A stretch of DNA of 52,323 nucleotides from a virus (IMGVR_UViG_2563367002_000003); one strand, 5' to 3'; shown: positions 34,358 through 42,377, numbered from the stretch's first letter. The notes: a model not told the origin generated them from the letters alone. A program made the numbers and translations.

Positions 34358-34434
34358 ATGGACCGCCATCGAGGACTCGAACCCCGCGCAACCAGCTTCG
34401 AAGGCTGGTGCTCTATCCTGATGAGCTAATGGCG
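34358..34434 (-). tRNA. tRNA-Arg (anticodon UCG), phage-encoded
   Basis: 77 nt ending CCA; perfect 7-bp acceptor stem (C1-G72), D-stem GCTC/GAGC, anticodon loop CTTCGAA, T-loop TTCGAGT. Confidence 0.7.
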
Positions 34435-34441
34435 GTATGTG

Positions 34442-34517
34442 ATGGTGGCCCTTGCTGGATTTGAACCAGCGACCTGGCGATTATGAGTCGCTCGCTCTCA
34501 CCTCTGAGCTAAAGGGC
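34442..34517 (-). tRNA. tRNA with CAU anticodon, ileX-like (tRNA-Ile2 read as AUA after lysidine modification, or Met)
   Basis: 76 nt ending CCA; near-identical to host ileX in acceptor, anticodon (loop CTCATAA) and T arms. Confidence 0.75.
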
Positions 34518-34650
34518 CGGGCGCAGGATAATAACGTTACGAAATCAATGTTGCAAGCATTCAAAAATCACCTGGTTAAAAATCACCCTTAGCTCCTCCA
34601 CCAGCGCATTCACCATGTCTATCCGAGATAAGTGGCACAAAAAAACCCGC

Positions 34651-34672
34651 TTGTGGGCGGGTTTTGTTTGCT
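34651..34672 (-). terminator. terminator-like hairpin downstream of Q-like gene
   Basis: AAACCCGC-TTGTG-GGCGGGTTTT flanked by A-run and T-run; between Q-like stop and first tRNA. Confidence 0.45.
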
Positions 34673-34728
34673 TTTGCCATCACGTACAAAATCGGCAAAA
34701 TATCAGATTTGCATGAAATATATGCCTT

Positions 34729-35418
34729 TCAATCTACTTTTGCAACACTTTGCTTTGAAAATGCCGCCTTTTGTTTTGAACGTGTTCTCATTACAAACAA
34801 TAAAGCCTCACTATCCAGTCGTTGAAAAATGTGTTTCATTGCAACCCAGTGACGAGTAAATGTTTTGGACCAGTTTTTAGTTGTCACTCCCGCCAGTAAT
34901 GCCAGCTCCTGGTATTCATAACCTTCCCCACCAAAAAGTTCTGCTTTTACTGCCTGCGCCGCCAGCCAGATTAATTTTTTCAGGCGTTCCTGCGTTTTCC
35001 CTGCAATTTTTCTGGTACCGGATTGAGTATTAAATTCATTCCACGCCCACTGTGTTATCGCGATCTGATATTCCCAACAAATACTCTCGCCGTAACACCA
35101 CAACAACCAGGCTTTATGATGCTCTTCAAGAGACAGCAAAGCCCGCCGCCATGATGATGTCGAAAACTCAACCGGGCTGACCAGGGCAATTGATGAGCCA
35201 TTCGCCAGTGATTGTTTTCCCGGGATTGGTGGATTATCCCGCGTTATCATTTTTCCAGTCACTTCATCGCGGTACCGGATTTTTTTTCGCCTGTAACGCC
35301 CTGTATCGAACATGGCATTCTCCTGCCAGGCTTCAAGCTGACCTTTTGTTGCCCCACTCAAATCAGCGGTGGCGATAATGAGCTGCTCACGCACAAACTG
35401 TAAATACTGGTTATTCAT
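34729..35418 (-). CDS. putative late-gene antiterminator (Q-like) by position
   Basis: 229 aa from ATG at 35418 (GGAG SD; ATGA overlap with rusA stop); last early gene before tRNAs and lysis genes; sequence family not confirmed. Confidence 0.5.
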   Translation of the reverse strand: MNNQYLQFVREQLIIATADLSGATKGQLEAWQENAMFDTGRYRRKKIRYRDEVTGKMITRDNPPIPGKQSLANGSSIALVSPVEFSTSSWRRALLSLEEHHKAWLLWCYGESICWEYQIAITQWAWNEFNTQSGTRKIAGKTQERLKKLIWLAAQAVKAELFGGEGYEYQELALLAGVTTKNWSKTFTRHWVAMKHIFQRLDSEALLFVMRTRSKQKAAFSKQSVAKVD

Positions 35419-35780
35419 GCGCACTCCAGTTCTGTGATTTTTATCCCCAGCCGCCCACCAGGAACGAGCTGACCGCGCACAATATTGATTTCATCAAACT
35501 GCTCGTCGTCTATAAGTAGTCCGGCATGCGTCAGCGCATCCAGTGGTGCCTTCAGGATATTGTCCAGGTCACGACGGCGCTTATCCGGTGGCTCTGCAAT
35601 AATCTTTATCGCCAGCCTTCCGGACAGGTTTAATTTCAGCCGCTGCTGGCGAACAATTAGCGCCACATCACGGCGATAACGCTTTCCGGCCTCCGAGATG
35701 AAATACGTATTGCCATGACGTCGCCAGTAGGTATTCACCGTCGGCGGGTAAGGCAAAACAAATTCTATGCGTTCAGTCAT
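35415..35780 (-). CDS. rusA: Holliday-junction resolvase RusA
   Basis: 121 aa (MTERIEFVLPYPPTVNTYWRR ... RRDLDNILKAPLDAL ...), characteristic RusA motifs. Confidence 0.85.
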   Translation of the reverse strand: MTERIEFVLPYPPTVNTYWRRHGNTYFISEAGKRYRRDVALIVRQQRLKLNLSGRLAIKIIAEPPDKRRRDLDNILKAPLDALTHAGLLIDDEQFDEINIVRGQLVPGGRLGIKITELECA

Positions 35781-36836
35781 TCATGCTTTCCACTTCAGGA
35801 CACCCGAATTTCTCGCGTGCATTAAAAAACGAATCAGCAACAACAGCTGGCTGCCGTGTTTTTCTTCAAAATCTTTTACCCCGGCGTGCAGTTCGTTATG
35901 ACATTTACGGCACAGCGGAATAACAAACAAATCATCAGCCTTTGTTCCCATCCCTCCCAGTCCATGACCAATGATGTGATGCGGATCATCTGCCTGATTA
36001 CCGCACGTCATGCATTTCTGCGTTTTTACCCAGCGCGTGTATACAGGCATCTCTTCCCGTTGTGGTTTCTGGCGCTGGAGATACTGAGCCGGTGACTCCG
36101 GATCAACAGCAATGCTGACCACCGTCTTTTCCTGTGGCGGGTTTTGCTGGTGGGCGTGAGGCAGCGGCGCAAGATTTTTTGTGCGCTGCTTCAGTATGCT
36201 GGTGGCGGTCTGCTCTCCCGGTACGATGTCGCTTTCACGGTACATTGAACGGATTTTTTCCGCACGCAACCCCAGCGAACGACGTAATACCGCTTCCGGT
36301 AGCGCGTCCGCCACCTGATTGCGGACCGCCCACCAGGATAATTCAGCCAGAGATAATTCACGCTCCTGCGTACCGCTTATTGCGTGACCGATGACGTCAA
36401 TCATCCATGCTGACAGGTTTTGATGAGCAAGTTGCTCGAGTGATTCGGATGTCTGGTCACGCAGCTGGTTGTCGCAGTGCCAGCACAACACCATTGCGCC
36501 GGTACCATAACGGTGAATGACGGTTTCGCTGTGATGATAATCGCCGTGTGGCCACTGGCAGGATTTAATATGGCGCAACAGCCAGTCAGACAATGCACCA
36601 GCACCACCAGCAGCACGAATCACCCGTGCGTTACTGAAAAACGGCAGCAATGTTTTGTCTTCCACCAGCGGCTGGCGAGCGGCAGGAACGACCCCGGACG
36701 GCAGATTACGCATGCTTTTTGGTTCCGGCTCCACCAGTATTCTGCCGTTATGGAATGCTGACATTGATTCACGGCCTGGCTTAACGATAACCAGACCGAG
36801 TTCCGGTACCAGAACAGGTCGAAGTAATACCCGCAC
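35781..36836 (-). CDS. DUF968-type phage protein (YdfU-like) with C-terminal HNH-like zinc motif
   Basis: 351 aa; C-terminal CMTCGNQADDPHHIIGHGLGG ... CRKCHNELH; GTG start abutting upstream stop; Qin-like position before rusA. Confidence 0.7.
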   Translation of the reverse strand: MRVLLRPVLVPELGLVIVKPGRESMSAFHNGRILVEPEPKSMRNLPSGVVPAARQPLVEDKTLLPFFSNARVIRAAGGAGALSDWLLRHIKSCQWPHGDYHHSETVIHRYGTGAMVLCWHCDNQLRDQTSESLEQLAHQNLSAWMIDVIGHAISGTQERELSLAELSWWAVRNQVADALPEAVLRRSLGLRAEKIRSMYRESDIVPGEQTATSILKQRTKNLAPLPHAHQQNPPQEKTVVSIAVDPESPAQYLQRQKPQREEMPVYTRWVKTQKCMTCGNQADDPHHIIGHGLGGMGTKADDLFVIPLCRKCHNELHAGVKDFEEKHGSQLLLLIRFLMHARNSGVLKWKA

Positions 36837-36837
36837 A

Positions 36838-37116
36838 TTACCTCCAGATCCGTTGCTGGAATGTGCGGGACGGACGCGCTGGCCGTTCGGAGTAAGGGAG
36901 CCTGACGGAGATTATCCAGTGACGGTAGTCGAGGCTAAGGGCTTTTTTAACCTCGCATCCGCGCCTGCGGTAACACTGAATGAGCCATTCGGCCTGTTCT
37001 TCAGTGCATGGGGGATGCTGGTACCAGTCAGATTTGAATGCGTGAAAACACCGTCCGCGCCTGCTGGCAAAGACGGCAGAATCATCAGAATTGTATAATT
37101 TGGTATCGTGCGCCAT
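36838..37116 (-). CDS. hypothetical small phage protein
   Basis: 92 aa, Cys/His/Trp-rich (CFHAF ... PPCTEEQAEWLIQCYRRRGC); no clear SD. Confidence 0.4.
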   Translation of the reverse strand: MAHDTKLYNSDDSAVFASRRGRCFHAFKSDWYQHPPCTEEQAEWLIQCYRRRGCEVKKALSLDYRHWIISVRLPYSERPARPSRTFQQRIWR

Positions 37117-37185
37117 CGGTTGTCTCTGCTGGCGCAGCAGGTGCCAGTTGTTCAGGCTGGCCTGTGGATTGTAAACCAGAATACG

Positions 37186-37211
37186 TAAAACAAAAACCCG
37201 CCGAGGCGGGT
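37186..37211 (-). terminator. rho-independent terminator closing the cargo operon
   Basis: minus-strand hairpin CCCGCC-TC-GGCGGG followed by TTTTTGTTTT, 12 nt after the HTH-ImmA stop; near-identical to hairpin at 39057-39077. Confidence 0.55.
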
Positions 37212-37222
37212 ATGAATGAGAA

Positions 37223-38368
37223 TTATTTTTGTTTTATGGTAAATGAAATAACATTGTCAGAATGAATCATATCTGATTCTTTAAATCGTGTAATTGCAGA
37301 TAACTCATTTAAAGGAAGAGCAAAGATATCAGTTAACTCAGTTACCTTTATGATTGAATGCTTATCAAGAAGTAAAAGTAACTTATTAAGTAACTCAGGC
37401 TCTTCTTTTGGGATTGCATCATCTAACGGCTCCCTACGATGGAATGGCGCTAATTGCTTAAATATATAGCTTTTCTGATTATCGCTAATTAACTTAAGGC
37501 TATGACTCCTCATGGCAATACTACCGATAGATGTAATCCAACGTAGTTTTAATCGTTCTAACGCTGATAAATTTGGACTATAAAATTCACGCCCGAAAGT
37601 CGTGGCTGGCATTAAAAAGCTGGAGGCAAAATAATCGGCCTGCAACTCCACTAGGTCGAATAATTCTTTATCATTCAGGTAGTCATCCTCCACTGCCCTA
37701 TGCATAATTAAATGGCCAAGTTCATGAGCAAGACTAAATCGCATGCGAACAGCCGTCTTCGAGCTATCTAACATAATTAAAGGCCGCCCATTATGCCAGA
37801 ACGAAAAGGCATCAACTTTCTCACCAGAAGGTAAATGAGAAACCACGATTCCTTTATTTTCAACAAGTCTAGTTAAATTGAGTATTGGACCATCACCTAA
37901 CCCCCAAAAACGCCTTAATTGGGTGGACATATCCTCAATATCAGATAGAGACAGAACCTCAAAATCAATAATATCGAATTCAGGCAGAACCACATCTGGT
38001 AATTGAGCATATTTTAGACATTCATCCAATATTAATGCCGCCCAACGCCCACGTGTTTTCCCTGTAACTCGAGCCTTTTTGGTCGCAGTTGAACGACTTC
38101 TAAAATGAATCGCCCCCTCCAGAGATGGAGAAGCACTGGAGGCTAAGAAAAATCGTTCTGGAAATCCTAACACCTTGGCTATTGCAGAAAGTGTATCAGC
38201 AGAGGGAGACTTCAACCCCTTCTCAAATGACGAAATAGCTTGTCTTGAAATATTGAGCACTCTGGCAAGTTCAGCCATCGTCAACCCTTTTGCCTCTCTT
38301 GCCTCCTCAAGGCGACGAGGATTAAACGATTTATCAGTAAATGGTGTTTGTGCGATATTCATGCTCAT
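37223..38368 (-). CDS. fused HTH-XRE DNA-binding / ImmA-IrrE-type zinc metallopeptidase regulator
   Basis: 381 aa; N-terminal HTH (LTMAELARVLNISRQAISSFEKG); HEXXH motif HELGHLIMH near aa 215; AT-rich; ATGA overlap with upstream gene. Confidence 0.75.
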   Translation of the reverse strand: MSMNIAQTPFTDKSFNPRRLEEAREAKGLTMAELARVLNISRQAISSFEKGLKSPSADTLSAIAKVLGFPERFFLASSASPSLEGAIHFRSRSTATKKARVTGKTRGRWAALILDECLKYAQLPDVVLPEFDIIDFEVLSLSDIEDMSTQLRRFWGLGDGPILNLTRLVENKGIVVSHLPSGEKVDAFSFWHNGRPLIMLDSSKTAVRMRFSLAHELGHLIMHRAVEDDYLNDKELFDLVELQADYFASSFLMPATTFGREFYSPNLSALERLKLRWITSIGSIAMRSHSLKLISDNQKSYIFKQLAPFHRREPLDDAIPKEEPELLNKLLLLLDKHSIIKVTELTDIFALPLNELSAITRFKESDMIHSDNVISFTIKQK

Positions 38369-38979
38369 GATTGCTGTGATTTAATTATTTGTTCGGTAAG
38401 AATCTTGATTTTATCTTCAATCTCAGAATCCACATTTTCTGCTTCAACTTCTACCATCGTCATAATTGGTAAAGACTCAGTATAAAGAATCCCGTAATTA
38501 TCCGAAGAAGGAACAGTTAAATTCAGTTTGGACAAGTGCTGATTACTGCCATCATGTAACATATAAACATGTCCACCAGACGCTCTCCCATCCAGGGAGT
38601 CGGCATTTTCATCCCCAAAATTCAATTCATAATTTTGATTAGCGTAAACAGCTCTATACAATGCCTGCTTAGGAAGTGGCGCATTACCCGATAAATGATG
38701 TGCCGTCATTTTCCAGTTGTTCGAGTGAATCGCAATGTGTTTACAATTTTTAGCAGCATTGCTACCGACTTCAAAATCCAGCCCCACACGCTTAGCCGCA
38801 TTCTCAAGCAATGCATCGGCATAAAACCAGCGCAAATATGACTGTGCTTGAGCCCAAAAAGAACCAAACTCTTTTGCCTTCATATGCGAATGAAGATAAG
38901 CCTGTGCTAACGCGATCGAAAGCTCTTTGCGGCACTCCTTGTCATATGCTTCTAACAACTGTTGAGATAAATTCTGCAT
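38365..38979 (-). CDS. hypothetical protein, upstream partner of the HTH-ImmA gene
   Basis: 204 aa; AAGGA upstream of ATG at 38979; AT-rich; no family recognised. Confidence 0.6.
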   Translation of the reverse strand: MQNLSQQLLEAYDKECRKELSIALAQAYLHSHMKAKEFGSFWAQAQSYLRWFYADALLENAAKRVGLDFEVGSNAAKNCKHIAIHSNNWKMTAHHLSGNAPLPKQALYRAVYANQNYELNFGDENADSLDGRASGGHVYMLHDGSNQHLSKLNLTVPSSDNYGILYTESLPIMTMVEVEAENVDSEIEDKIKILTEQIIKSQQS

Positions 38980-39056
38980 GACCGTAATATCCTTGTTGTT
39001 TTGGTGTCAACCATATTTCCATTTAACATAGACTTTGTCAACCAGATAGATGCTAG

Positions 39057-39077
39057 AAAAACCCGCCGAAGCGGGTT
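39057..39077 (-). terminator. terminator-like hairpin downstream of hok gene
   Basis: minus-strand ACCCGC-TTCG-GCGGGT followed by TTTTC; between hok and the cargo operon. Confidence 0.45.
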
Positions 39078-39145
39078 AAGCGCGGGTGCATTGAGGATGC
39101 CTGACTCATCAGAGGTGGCGAGGGATTTCTCCCCCGCCAGGTCTC

Positions 39146-39301
39146 TTACTCCTCAGGTTCGTAAGCTGTGAAGACAGCGACCTCCGTCTGGCCGGTTCGG
39201 ATTCGTACCTCGCAGAGGTCTTTCCTCGTTACCAGTGCCGTCACAATGACGGTTAAACAGATGACGATCAGGGCGATTAGCATCGCCTTTTGCTGCTTCA
39301 T
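39146..39301 (-). CDS. hokD: Hok/Gef-family type I toxin (HokD/RelF-like)
   Basis: 51 aa from ATG at 39301: MKQQKAMLIALIVICLTVIVTALVTRKDLCEVRIRTGQTEVAVFTAYEPEE, matching HokD as I recall it; longer in-frame upstream ORF to 39358 is the mok-like leader. Confidence 0.8.
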   Translation of the reverse strand: MKQQKAMLIALIVICLTVIVTALVTRKDLCEVRIRTGQTEVAVFTAYEPEE

Positions 39302-39578
39302 AGCCTGCTTCTCCTTGCCTTTCGGCGCGTAAGAGGCTAACCTAGATTTGCCGTTCATAGATTGAGCCTCAGATTAATGTTAAGCGTCTTGCAGGACGCG
39401 TAAGGTTAACTGGGGCTTTTCTCTATCTGCCTTTGGTGTTCATGCCTGAGACAGATAGCCTCAAGCACCCGCAGCCATTCTACTTAACTCCCGTCACCTC
39501 GCCAATATGAAATCAATCAGAAAGGCGAACCATAAGAGCAATAGCAAAACAATAAGGCCCGCATGGTCGTACAAAGAC

Positions 39579-42377
39579 TCAGGCACCGTGACATTTTTTG
39601 TACTTTATTCCCGAGCCACAGGGGCATTGTTCATTCCGGCCGACCGCACCAAAAACTTCAGTTAATTTAGTCTTTGCTGCTTTATGGGCAAGCTGTACGA
39701 TGTAATTTGATTGATTTTGGATTTCTTGACGCTGTACACCTGTGAGGCCTTCGATATAGGGAGCAAGGCGCTGCATTTCGACATCAGCTGCTTTATGCTG
39801 ACCCGATAGTGCCAATATGACTGCGTACTGGCTTCGAACCTGAATCAGTCGGTGTACTAGACCTGCCTCATTGACAACCGGCAGGACATGTTGCTCCATG
39901 ACTTCCTTGGCACCGTCGTAATCCTTTATGGCAACAAACTCATCCGCCAGATCTTGGCCCACCCTAACCATGGATTCCGGGGCCATGGCCAGATTGTAGA
40001 ACTTCATCGAATGAATACGCAGTAATGGTGACAGTTTTCCCTGCGCATCACGAATTCTGGCCAGCAACTCCAGAGCATCAGCCATATGTTTAAAGTGTTC
40101 CTGCATATTTTCGGAATGATTAATAGTTTTCCATAATGCGTCGGCGTTTTTTCCTATGACATCAGCAGGTGTGATACCAAATAAAGAATAGTACCCTTGT
40201 ATAACATTACAGCTTAATGTTTCAGCATCCTTGAGTTTTTTTAATCTCCAGAGTGCAATGGCATGGTTGTAGTCAAAGATGCGTTTATGTTCTTCATCTG
40301 GGAGTTGGGGGCGGACTTCCTGTGCCAGCTTTTGAACTTCTCGTGCATCATTGCTTTCTGCCGAAAATAACATTCGTTTCATTGCATAGGCCATCTCTTC
40401 TTGATAGCCGAACTTGTGCTCCGCAAGTAAAGCTCCCATGATGTTTAACCTCTGAGCAATGTGGTCGGATATTCCGTCTTTAAGCTCAACGAAAACAAGG
40501 CCATCCAATGCCCAGAATTTATGAACAGGTCCCAATAAGTCCGATGTTGCAGCACGCTCCAAGCTTGCAAGAATGTCGACCGTCACGCCCATCTCATAAA
40601 ACATTTCTTGGCCTGAGAGTTCGATCAACGTCGTGACATCATTGAGCTTAATATAAAGTTGAGTCAACAACGATAACCGTTTTGTATTGCGGGTATTATG
40701 AAGACTTTCAACTAAAAGGTCTTTCAGCGCTAGTAGCGCTTTGTTCGATATACCCTGATCCATCAGTTCCAGATGTTGCAGTCCTAGCCCCCTGACAGCA
40801 TCATGTACCTTCAGGGTCTGGTTTCCATAAATTTCAATAGTGCCAGTAGCGCGCATTTTCCTAATTAAAGAAGCCGCACTGCTTGGTGAAATGTTCAGCG
40901 AATTGATTAGGAGCGTAGAAATCTCTTCGCGACTCAGCCCTACGTCAGAGAGACTGAACAATGCCAGCGCGCTCTGAAGTAGTGATTCAAATCCCTGAAA
41001 TACACGTGACAGAATAATTTCTTGGGCGGTTTCCGCAGTATGGGTTTGTTGCTGGAGTTCAGCACACAGAGCATCGACACTACGCTCATAATCAGAAACG
41101 GCGATTTTTGCGGCGCTCTCTACATACAGGGGAAGACCACCAGTGTAAGCCCGTAGCTGCTCGTATCCCATAGCGGTGGCAAATCCTCCGATATCGTTTA
41201 CAACGACAGCTACCGTATCGAGATTCCATCCCTGCAGGCCCTCGCGCTGTAGCCCCGTCATGACCTCCAGTTCGCGAACGTTTTCGTGAGGCTGGCACAA
41301 CAGCACAAAACGAATATGTGTAGTTGCATTCAGAACATCCCGTAGATTTTCCGCAGGTACACGATGGGCGTTATCCAGAACCAGCACCAAGGTGGTACCC
41401 TGCTCTTTCAGGTAGGTATCAAAACTCCTAAGAGCCTCAAAACCACTGGCACCGGGGAGCAAAATCCTGCGCAAACCGTCTTGGTCACGGGCTGTAAATC
41501 TAGCAGCCATCTCGCGCACCAGCGTACTGGCCAGAGCTGGACCGGGAAGATCACCGGTGTCGTAATAAGCACAAAGTGCAGTGGAGTGTAATGCGGCCTG
41601 TGCGGCCCAAGCTGTCTTGCCTGCACCTGAGAGTCCACAAAGGATACGGATCCGCTCACCAGATGTGAGAGAAGGTTCTTCGTTTTGTGGGCGGTACAGT
41701 GCTGGTGGTGCAGGAAAGTCCTGTAGCTGAACGATCAACTGTTCAAATAGTTCAGTAAGTTCCTCCGTGAAAAACGTATGTTGTCCATTGGTATCGCCTC
41801 CGGTGGCGGCAAGCTGAACCAACCCTGCTAACTTCCAAATCAAGGATTCTGGGGACAATAGTGAAAATTTCAGCTTTTCTGCTTCTGCGATACACCATGT
41901 GGCCGCATCAGCCAGAGTACTCCATGCGGGCGGAAGTGCCGGATGACGTCCAGCTGTCGACTGGGGCCAGACAATAAGAACATCAGAAGGAAGCTTTTTA
42001 TCGTCAATCATCTTCTGAAGCAGCGGTCCAGGCGCCTGGTTTACAATAATCACAAAAGAAGCCACCCCTTCGCGGTTTGCCGAAGTATGCTCATTTCTGA
42101 GCTTTACAAATCGCTCCAGAGCCCCCGACACATCGTTGGGCATAATAGGCTTTGAACGGGTTTTAACCTGAATGTAGAGACGTTCCTGTTTGGATTTCAG
42201 CTCAATATCCTCATCAAGCTCGACAGTTACTGAGTCCATAGCAGCCCTCTGCGCCAAAAGTAAGCAGCCTACAGCGTAAAGATGCTGGTAAAGGAACCCC
42301 CGGTGTACCGCTTCGATACGCACCAACTGCACAGGATCCAGTACGTCCAGATTTTGTTTGTTTTCACTTCCCCACAT
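39579..42377 (-). CDS. STAND-like P-loop NTPase, three-part architecture with C-terminal SEC-C zinc motif; candidate antiviral (Avs-like) protein
   Basis: 932 aa; AAGGA SD 8 nt before ATG at 42377; Walker A GLSGAGKT and Walker B-like LVLVLDNAH; N-terminal ~200 aa with D..E.K-like pattern (VELDEDIELK ... YIQVKT); long helical C-terminal region; ends CPCGSGIKYKKCHGA. Confidence 0.7.
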   Translation of the reverse strand: MWGSENKQNLDVLDPVQLVRIEAVHRGFLYQHLYAVGCLLLAQRAAMDSVTVELDEDIELKSKQERLYIQVKTRSKPIMPNDVSGALERFVKLRNEHTSANREGVASFVIIVNQAPGPLLQKMIDDKKLPSDVLIVWPQSTAGRHPALPPAWSTLADAATWCIAEAEKLKFSLLSPESLIWKLAGLVQLAATGGDTNGQHTFFTEELTELFEQLIVQLQDFPAPPALYRPQNEEPSLTSGERIRILCGLSGAGKTAWAAQAALHSTALCAYYDTGDLPGPALASTLVREMAARFTARDQDGLRRILLPGASGFEALRSFDTYLKEQGTTLVLVLDNAHRVPAENLRDVLNATTHIRFVLLCQPHENVRELEVMTGLQREGLQGWNLDTVAVVVNDIGGFATAMGYEQLRAYTGGLPLYVESAAKIAVSDYERSVDALCAELQQQTHTAETAQEIILSRVFQGFESLLQSALALFSLSDVGLSREEISTLLINSLNISPSSAASLIRKMRATGTIEIYGNQTLKVHDAVRGLGLQHLELMDQGISNKALLALKDLLVESLHNTRNTKRLSLLTQLYIKLNDVTTLIELSGQEMFYEMGVTVDILASLERAATSDLLGPVHKFWALDGLVFVELKDGISDHIAQRLNIMGALLAEHKFGYQEEMAYAMKRMLFSAESNDAREVQKLAQEVRPQLPDEEHKRIFDYNHAIALWRLKKLKDAETLSCNVIQGYYSLFGITPADVIGKNADALWKTINHSENMQEHFKHMADALELLARIRDAQGKLSPLLRIHSMKFYNLAMAPESMVRVGQDLADEFVAIKDYDGAKEVMEQHVLPVVNEAGLVHRLIQVRSQYAVILALSGQHKAADVEMQRLAPYIEGLTGVQRQEIQNQSNYIVQLAHKAAKTKLTEVFGAVGRNEQCPCGSGIKYKKCHGA

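Follow-up and report, generated by a model that had tools for sequence, protein, structure and literature searches.

The RosmerTA system protects against phages; its antitoxin is a Zn-peptidase, the function of its toxin was described as unknown, and a delta-rmrA construct could not be transformed (Millman et al. 2022, bioRxiv 10.1101/2022.05.11.491447). In later work the family includes varied, unrelated toxins; the antitoxin paired with them is an ImmA-type protease, often with a helix-turn-helix (HTH) domain at its N-terminus (including NetFlax, PMC10440598). Here we describe two genes, designated rmrT and rmrA, on a 52,323-nucleotide stretch of viral DNA (IMGVR_UViG_2563367002_000003; this whole stretch is called the window). 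We consider, with a probability of roughly 0.8, that rmrT-rmrA is a RosmerTA-type toxin-antitoxin (anti-phage defence) cassette and that it is carried as a moron, i.e. as an autonomously expressed, non-essential prophage insert. This kind of system is already known.

The verified RosmerTA pair of E. coli OLC-716 (RmrT and RmrA sequences from the supplement of bioRxiv 10.1101/2022.05.11.491447) resembles the window's cassette in being an E. coli operon of two genes that opens with the toxin gene, and in having an antitoxin made up of an XRE HTH, an M78 domain and a C-terminal region. Its toxin is, however, unrelated in sequence, and falls under the PADLOC models PDLC03935/32, whereas the window's subfamily falls under PDLC03933/34/37/38/40. 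The RipA/RipB pair (Spr1630/Spr1629) of Streptococcus pneumoniae was placed in the Rosmer family by its authors; the target of RipA is the sliding clamp, and RipA is ClpX-dependent, with ClpX becoming essential in this organism and its loss freeing the toxin (PMC12795458). Over its full length, the window's RmrA fits the NCBIfam model of the spr1629 family repressor/antitoxin (E 4.8e-55), but its 187 bits are below the equivalog cut-off of 335, and the 204-amino acid (aa) product of rmrT lacks an NCBIfam match.

Two other pairs, vmi480/vmi470 of Vibrio mimicus and E101_02645/02644 of E. coli E101, are carried by a genomic island and a prophage (PMC4671572, bioRxiv 10.1101/2020.05.25.114553). 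In both of them a toxin gene for a protein of about 200 aa without a known domain (198 aa for vmi480) precedes the gene of an antitoxin with an HTH and a Zn-peptidase. The vmi480/vmi470 genes act as a toxin-antitoxin pair (PMC4671572). In E. coli E101 the toxin is freed when ClpP is lost, so that ClpP becomes essential, and of the two pairs ClpP dependence has been shown for E101 alone (bioRxiv 10.1101/2020.05.25.114553). The accessions of both pairs differ from those of the window's proteins, and searching the literature by accession number led to the original preprint alone. RmrTA of Gordonia phage Kita is also a phage-borne RosmerTA with an ImmA-type antitoxin, for which defence was shown; the toxin of Kita is directed to the membrane, which it depolarises (NetFlax, PMC10440598), whereas the toxin of the window has no hydrophobic segment.

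The RmrA and RmrT proteins

We observed that RmrA (381 aa) contains an HTH_3 domain at residues 20-73 (Pfam, E 2.4e-16) and a Peptidase_M78 domain at residues 170-287 (E 9.7e-19). The sequence HELGHLIMH begins at residue 215, with HELGH at 215-219. The layout of the protein is an XRE HTH, a linker, the M78 zinc peptidase and a C-terminal region of residues ~291-381. An N-terminal XRE HTH with an M78 (ImmA/IrrE, COG2856) zinc peptidase, together with homology to RmrA, is what marks the antitoxins of this family, and the homology was also found: the PADLOC RmrA model was matched with an E of 5.5e-102 over residues 11-380, and the verified OLC-716 RmrA was 31% identical over 354 collinear aa (E 4e-41). 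When nine orthologs were compared, the HTH was the most conserved segment of RmrA, with GLTMAELARVLxISRQAISSFEKG being nearly invariant. The HEXXH and a downstream E..QAD motif were conserved among the orthologs as well. The closest solved structures to the peptidase domain are CapP and IrrE.

The match of RmrT to the PADLOC RmrT model PDLC03933 was partial, covering residues 47-161 (E 7.5e-10). Since all 62 aligned relatives match this same model (best E 1.8e-53), the window protein is a diverged member of a catalogued RmrT subfamily. rmrT is, moreover, a small gene that lies adjacent to rmrA in the same orientation. At E <= 0.001, a HMMER profile search of 1.84 billion representatives yielded 78 related clusters, with few exceptions ~200-220 aa in length. 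Almost all are unannotated, and cluster look-ups gave no informative names. Neither the single protein nor the family profile had a match in Pfam or NCBIfam, and the family sequence profile had none in the PDB. A scan of one genome per species gave no RmrT relative, and a word-indexed protein search with the 62-sequence profile gave almost no further relatives.

These searches bear on several points of a sequence-only reading of this DNA made earlier. It had noticed two AT-rich genes overlapping by ATGA, of which the second encodes a fused XRE HTH/ImmA-type peptidase with HELGHLIMH, and both of these observations were confirmed. It had also proposed the upstream 204-aa protein as an effector or target candidate, and the effector role was supported. 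The same protein had been regarded as having no recognisable motif; it is true that no Pfam model covers it, but it does match a catalogued RmrT family model. The arrangement is not an unknown one, since it belongs to the catalogued RosmerTA (RmrT/RmrA) family and is already recognised by current defence-finding models. In existing annotations rmrT is a 'hypothetical protein' and rmrA a 'helix-turn-helix domain-containing protein', so that two genes with uninformative annotation gain a defence/toxin-antitoxin assignment, while the general picture of RosmerTA systems is unchanged.

RmrT is an acidic, soluble protein. The top 19-residue hydropathy is 0.7 and there is no hydrophobic segment; for this reason we rejected a toxin that acts on the membrane as the one of phage Kita does. 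With the 62-sequence alignment, AlphaFold2 gave a model with a mean pLDDT of 85.2 and a pTM of 0.77 (with just 9 close homologs the pLDDT was 38, and that model was unusable). The residues conserved across the family are Y28, N74, N78, H81, T92, R109, N116, F121, H142, P157 and E181. Four of these, N74, N78, H81 and T92, lie on predicted strands 2-3, as placed from predicted secondary structure and not by superposition; H94 is invariant among the closer relatives alone. The model points to a possible restriction-endonuclease-like fold with non-canonical conserved residues. As no conserved D...(D/E)xK was seen in the RmrT family alignment, we treat this nuclease-like fold as a lead only. The PD-(D/E)xK nuclease class was not assigned, the catalytic acidic/lysine signature being absent. 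That RmrT might act on or bind nucleic acid is a guess that we make with low confidence. The subfamily could be a new kind of effector in which a conserved set of Asn, His, Thr and Arg would replace the acidic catalytic residues on a restriction-endonuclease-like scaffold, with a chemistry or target binding not previously described among toxin-antitoxin toxins.

The cassette as an insert and its control elements

We evaluated the distribution of the cassette and found it in 41 of 5426 complete E. coli genomes (~0.8%), always at an identity of at least 99% and always on the chromosome. The carriers include the Crohn's-associated, adherent-invasive E. coli (AIEC) strain LF82 and avian pathogenic strains. 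In a translated protein search the toxin was present in 1 of 50,697 phage records, that of phage Tritos, and it was not found among plasmids. rmrA adjoins rmrT on its downstream side in every relative that has enough flanking DNA, with RmrT identities from 100 to 51% and RmrA identities down to 63%. The pair occupies different prophage slots: the nin region between the replication genes and Q, the interval between cI and N, and a position after a primase.

In the window the cassette lies in the early-right (nin) region of a Qin/Tritos-like lambdoid E. coli prophage, between hokD and rem, as concluded from the late-regulation backbone that lies downstream. In thousands of E. coli prophages the left and right flanks are directly adjacent, without the cassette. 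At the empty site of phage vB_EcoS-640R1, the homologies of the two flanks overlap by 19 bp, which corresponds to one single copy of the hairpin. Since the empty site has a single hairpin, the window can be read as backbone, hairpin, 1845-bp cassette, hairpin and backbone. The cassette was at the same junction in 15/15 sampled carriers, with homology continuous from ydfU/rem through hokD. Its GC content (0.34-0.43) is lower than that of the flanks, which is 0.51-0.56 towards rem/ydfU and 0.47-0.51 towards hokD. Judged from these sequence comparisons, the cassette is a self-contained insert in the prophage.

The published transcriptomes of LF82 allow the expression of the cassette to be followed in an uninduced lysogen. 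The proteins of LF82_281 and LF82_280 (prophage Tritos) are identical to those of the window, and the two genes were transcribed 30-fold and 14-fold, respectively, over the prophage background; LF82_281 is given there as a 'hypothetical protein' and LF82_280 as an ImmA/IrrE peptidase. Both are listed among the transcribed morons of prophage Tritos. The cassette thus shows presence and absence at a fixed backbone junction, a promoter and terminator of its own, and expression in the lysogen, as in a moron.

The stop codon of rmrT and the start codon of rmrA overlap by 4 nt (ATGA on the minus strand, 38365-38368), and the two genes form an operon with likely translational coupling. A Shine-Dalgarno sequence, AAGGA, precedes rmrT at 38994-38990. 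rmrA has a second in-frame ATG two codons downstream, from which some annotations derive a 379-aa variant.

Two copies of TGGTTGACA lie in the 77 bp that separate the upstream hairpin from the rmrT start. A perfect -35 TTGACA (39041-39036) comes from the first copy; a 17-nt spacer ending in TGG (extended -10) leads from it to a -10 AAATAT at 39018-39013, and the second copy spans the transcription start, which is predicted near 39006. This promoter was missed by a consensus scanner because the -10 fits at just 3/6 positions. Both copies and their spacing were kept in 10/10 distinct loci, down to an RmrT identity of 51%, while the adjacent DNA varies. We regard the TGGTTGACA repeats as the likely, still putative, operator of RmrA. 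Since these repeats are invariant and no part of RmrA is more conserved than its HTH, it is reasonable to infer a putative autorepression of RmrA through them. No LexA box was seen near the cassette promoter, for which reason direct SOS control was rejected.

The cassette is bracketed by a 20-nt repeat, with AAAAACCCGCCGAGGCGGGT at 37192-37211 and AAAAACCCGCCGAAGCGGGT at 39057-39076, which are identical at 19/20 positions. When the 17-mer core of the repeat was searched with up to 2 mismatches, just these two sites were found in the 52 kb, where shuffled sequences would be expected to give 0.02. On the minus strand both copies form a hairpin with a G+C stem of 6-7 bp and a tetraloop, followed by a U run; the downstream hairpin folds at -12.1 kcal/mol (z -3.6) and the upstream one at -13.9 kcal/mol (z -3.1). 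A consensus terminator scan called the downstream hairpin and not the upstream one, whose T run is shorter. In all orthologous loci too, the rmrA stop is followed within ~40 nt by a G+C hairpin and its T run; the stem sequences differ, and several of these terminators are of the CCCGC/GCGGG type.

The near-identical hairpins had been taken in the sequence-only reading as the signature of an inserted module. The unit is indeed an insert between copies of a repeat, but the hairpins themselves are intrinsic terminators and are not transposon-like. A transposon-style target duplication was rejected as their explanation: both copies look like functional terminators, the unit has no accompanying transposase or integrase, and orthologous cassettes have terminators of other sequence. 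The comparison with related prophages, which that reading had suggested, did separate prophages with and without the unit, and the empty site shows how a prophage gains cargo at a terminator. This compact E. coli cassette with natural isogenic empty sites would be a convenient model for the RosmerTA mechanism.

Table 1. Positions of the cassette genes, promoter and hairpins in the window
Feature	Position	Strand	Description
Upstream hairpin (repeat D1)	39057..39076	minus	hokD intrinsic terminator, ACCCGCUUCGGCGGGU + UUUUU; 5' boundary of the insert
Cassette promoter and putative operator	39005..39044	minus	two direct TGGTTGACA repeats with 31 bp spacing
TGGTTGACA repeats	39036-39044 and 39005-39013	minus	sole copies of the 9-mer in the window
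rmrT (204-aa ORF, WP_001180546.1)	38365..38979	minus	toxin candidate
rmrA (381-aa ORF, WP_000062344.1)	37223..38368	minus	antitoxin/repressor candidate
Downstream hairpin	37185..37211	minus	cassette intrinsic terminator, ACCCGCCUCGGCGGGU + UUUUUGUUUUA; 3' boundary of the insert

Proposed working and alternative readings

We propose that in the lysogen the sigma-70 promoter, with its perfect -35 and extended -10, would transcribe rmrT and rmrA as one mRNA; this step is suggested by the conservation of the promoter and by the transcription of the identical LF82 genes. The ATGA overlap would couple the synthesis of RmrA to that of RmrT. RmrA would neutralise RmrT, as was shown in other RosmerTA pairs, where deletion of rmrA is lethal, and it would probably repress its own promoter, with its invariant HTH binding the two invariant repeats that cover the -35 and the start of transcription. 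By analogy with the relatives, infection by a second phage could disable the neutralisation by RmrA, maybe through the zinc peptidase and the host ClpXP. The freed RmrT would then halt the cell and abort the infection. At the borders of the cassette, the upstream hairpin would end hokD transcription, and the downstream hairpin would keep the cassette transcripts out of rem-ydfU-rusA-Q in the lysogen.

Some points weigh against a RosmerTA defence moron. The toxicity and defence of this subfamily are argued by analogy from other members, and the verified RmrT belongs to other models (PDLC03935/03932) and has no similarity to the window's RmrT. A connection of the window's subfamily with vmi480 or with E. 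coli E101_02645 was not established; the accession numbers differ. The gene identical to the window's hokD is by far the most transcribed prophage gene of LF82, at 3792-fold over background, and the expression of the LF82 cassette could partly be read-through from it. Finally, that RmrA binds the operator is something that we infer, as are the part played by the protease and the nature of the trigger.

Three other readings were weighed, all of which we find less likely than a RosmerTA moron. In the first, the cassette would serve purely for addiction (post-segregational killing) and so stabilise the prophage, with the same toxin-antitoxin biochemistry and no protection from other phages. It agrees with the position of the cassette next to hokD, another killer gene, and with the first reports of the island-borne and prophage-borne relatives, in which they were described simply as toxin-antitoxin pairs. 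Defence has also been assayed in just some RosmerTA members, and the spectra are narrow. The members that were verified do, however, defend against phages, and the cassette sits in typical moron/defence slots of prophages, including one next to cI. We consider addiction as the sole role to be improbable, and the two roles are in any case not mutually exclusive.

The second would make the unit the prophage's own regulatory switch of the ImmR/ImmA or DdrO/IrrE type, which comes near to the view taken in the sequence-only reading. The HTH-peptidase would sense DNA damage and derepress phage genes, and the 204-aa protein would be a regulated phage function and not a toxin. The M78 domain does resemble CapP and IrrE, XRE repressors are cleaved by ImmA-type proteases, and ImmR/ImmA (ICEBs1), DdrO/IrrE (Deinococcus) and CapH/CapP (CBASS) all have, like RmrA, an XRE HTH and an M78 peptidase with HEXXH. 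In an ImmR/ImmA-type switch, however, a separate XRE repressor of the element's genes is cleaved by the protease, whereas in the window the HTH and the protease are fused in one polypeptide that is paired with a toxin. The prophage has its own cI/cro-type switch, and nearly all the related prophages are without the unit, their empty site being intact. The unit is found in unrelated phage slots, always with the 204-aa gene, and it is transcribed in the uninduced lysogen. The analogy to DNA-damage-responsive repressor-protease pairs drawn in the sequence-only reading found no specific support, as the promoter has no LexA box, and a switch of this type seems very improbable to us.

The reversed assignment, with the peptidase domain as the toxic effector and the 204-aa protein as an inhibitor or sensor, follows older comparative-genomics predictions, in which COG2856 was listed as the putative toxin that partners Xre antitoxins. 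We consider it highly unlikely, since in tested systems with the fused architecture the small protein encoded upstream has proved to be the toxin, with the HTH-peptidase as its antitoxin.

Other cargo at the junction and neighbouring genes

The hokD-rem junction behaves as a small cargo hotspot. We observed two other states of the junction, at sites equivalent to window 37192-39076. E. coli FDN-4 (L003 1599-2275) has there a 130-aa lipoprotein-like gene, with a signal peptide ending in LGGC. This cargo is flanked by two copies of the window's hairpin, of which the upstream copy is truncated. E. coli SK1144 (L004 1563-1906) has a 326-bp AT-rich filler with no gene and a single hairpin.

A near-identical hairpin, AACCCGCTGCGGCGG[G/T]T followed by a T run, was also found upstream of the cassette in Salmonella loci (L010 4901-5000, L026 3901-4000). 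In these loci the homology to the window extends from the rmrA stop codon to just beyond the upstream hairpin. The gene upstream is a dATP/dGTP pyrophosphohydrolase and not hokD, and the loop of the downstream terminator differs. The similar terminator hairpins may have served as short homologies for recombination. Since two different cargos share the hairpin, and since the Salmonella cassette has the upstream hairpin, hairpin-bracketed cassettes are maybe portable. The proposals of a new effector chemistry for the RmrT subfamily and, separately, of hairpin-bracketed cassettes as portable units that recombine at similar phage terminators are tentative, and we think them unlikely to hold.

Downstream of the cassette, the backbone at 34729-37116 (minus strand) carries the lambdoid late-regulation genes, namely a rem-like gene of 92 aa, ydfU, rusA and a homolog of the antiterminator Q. 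The ydfU product is a DUF968 protein with an HNH-like region. Directly upstream of the cassette is hokD (39146-39358, minus strand), which encodes a Hok/Gef type I toxin (PF01848, E 3e-23) and has an overlapping mok-like frame.

Further upstream, at 39579-42377 (minus strand), a 932-aa protein is encoded. It has an N-terminal Cap4/DUF4297-type nuclease domain, an AAA ATPase (residues 239-364) and a C-terminal SEC-C motif. Against PADLOC it gave weak LmuA and DUF4297 matches and nothing stronger. We regard it as a candidate for a one-gene defence system; the slot that it occupies upstream of hokD is variable. In relatives this slot holds QueH (avian pathogenic E. coli, APEC, strain E19035) or an FRG-domain gene (LF82/Tritos). 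An IMG/VR relative (L024) is 100% identical over window 34368-41726 apart from an IS3-family insertion in the 932-aa gene. The inserted element is 1.25 kb long, contains orfA and orfB, and lies at 465-1713 of the relative, equivalent to window 41263-41266, where it splits the gene.

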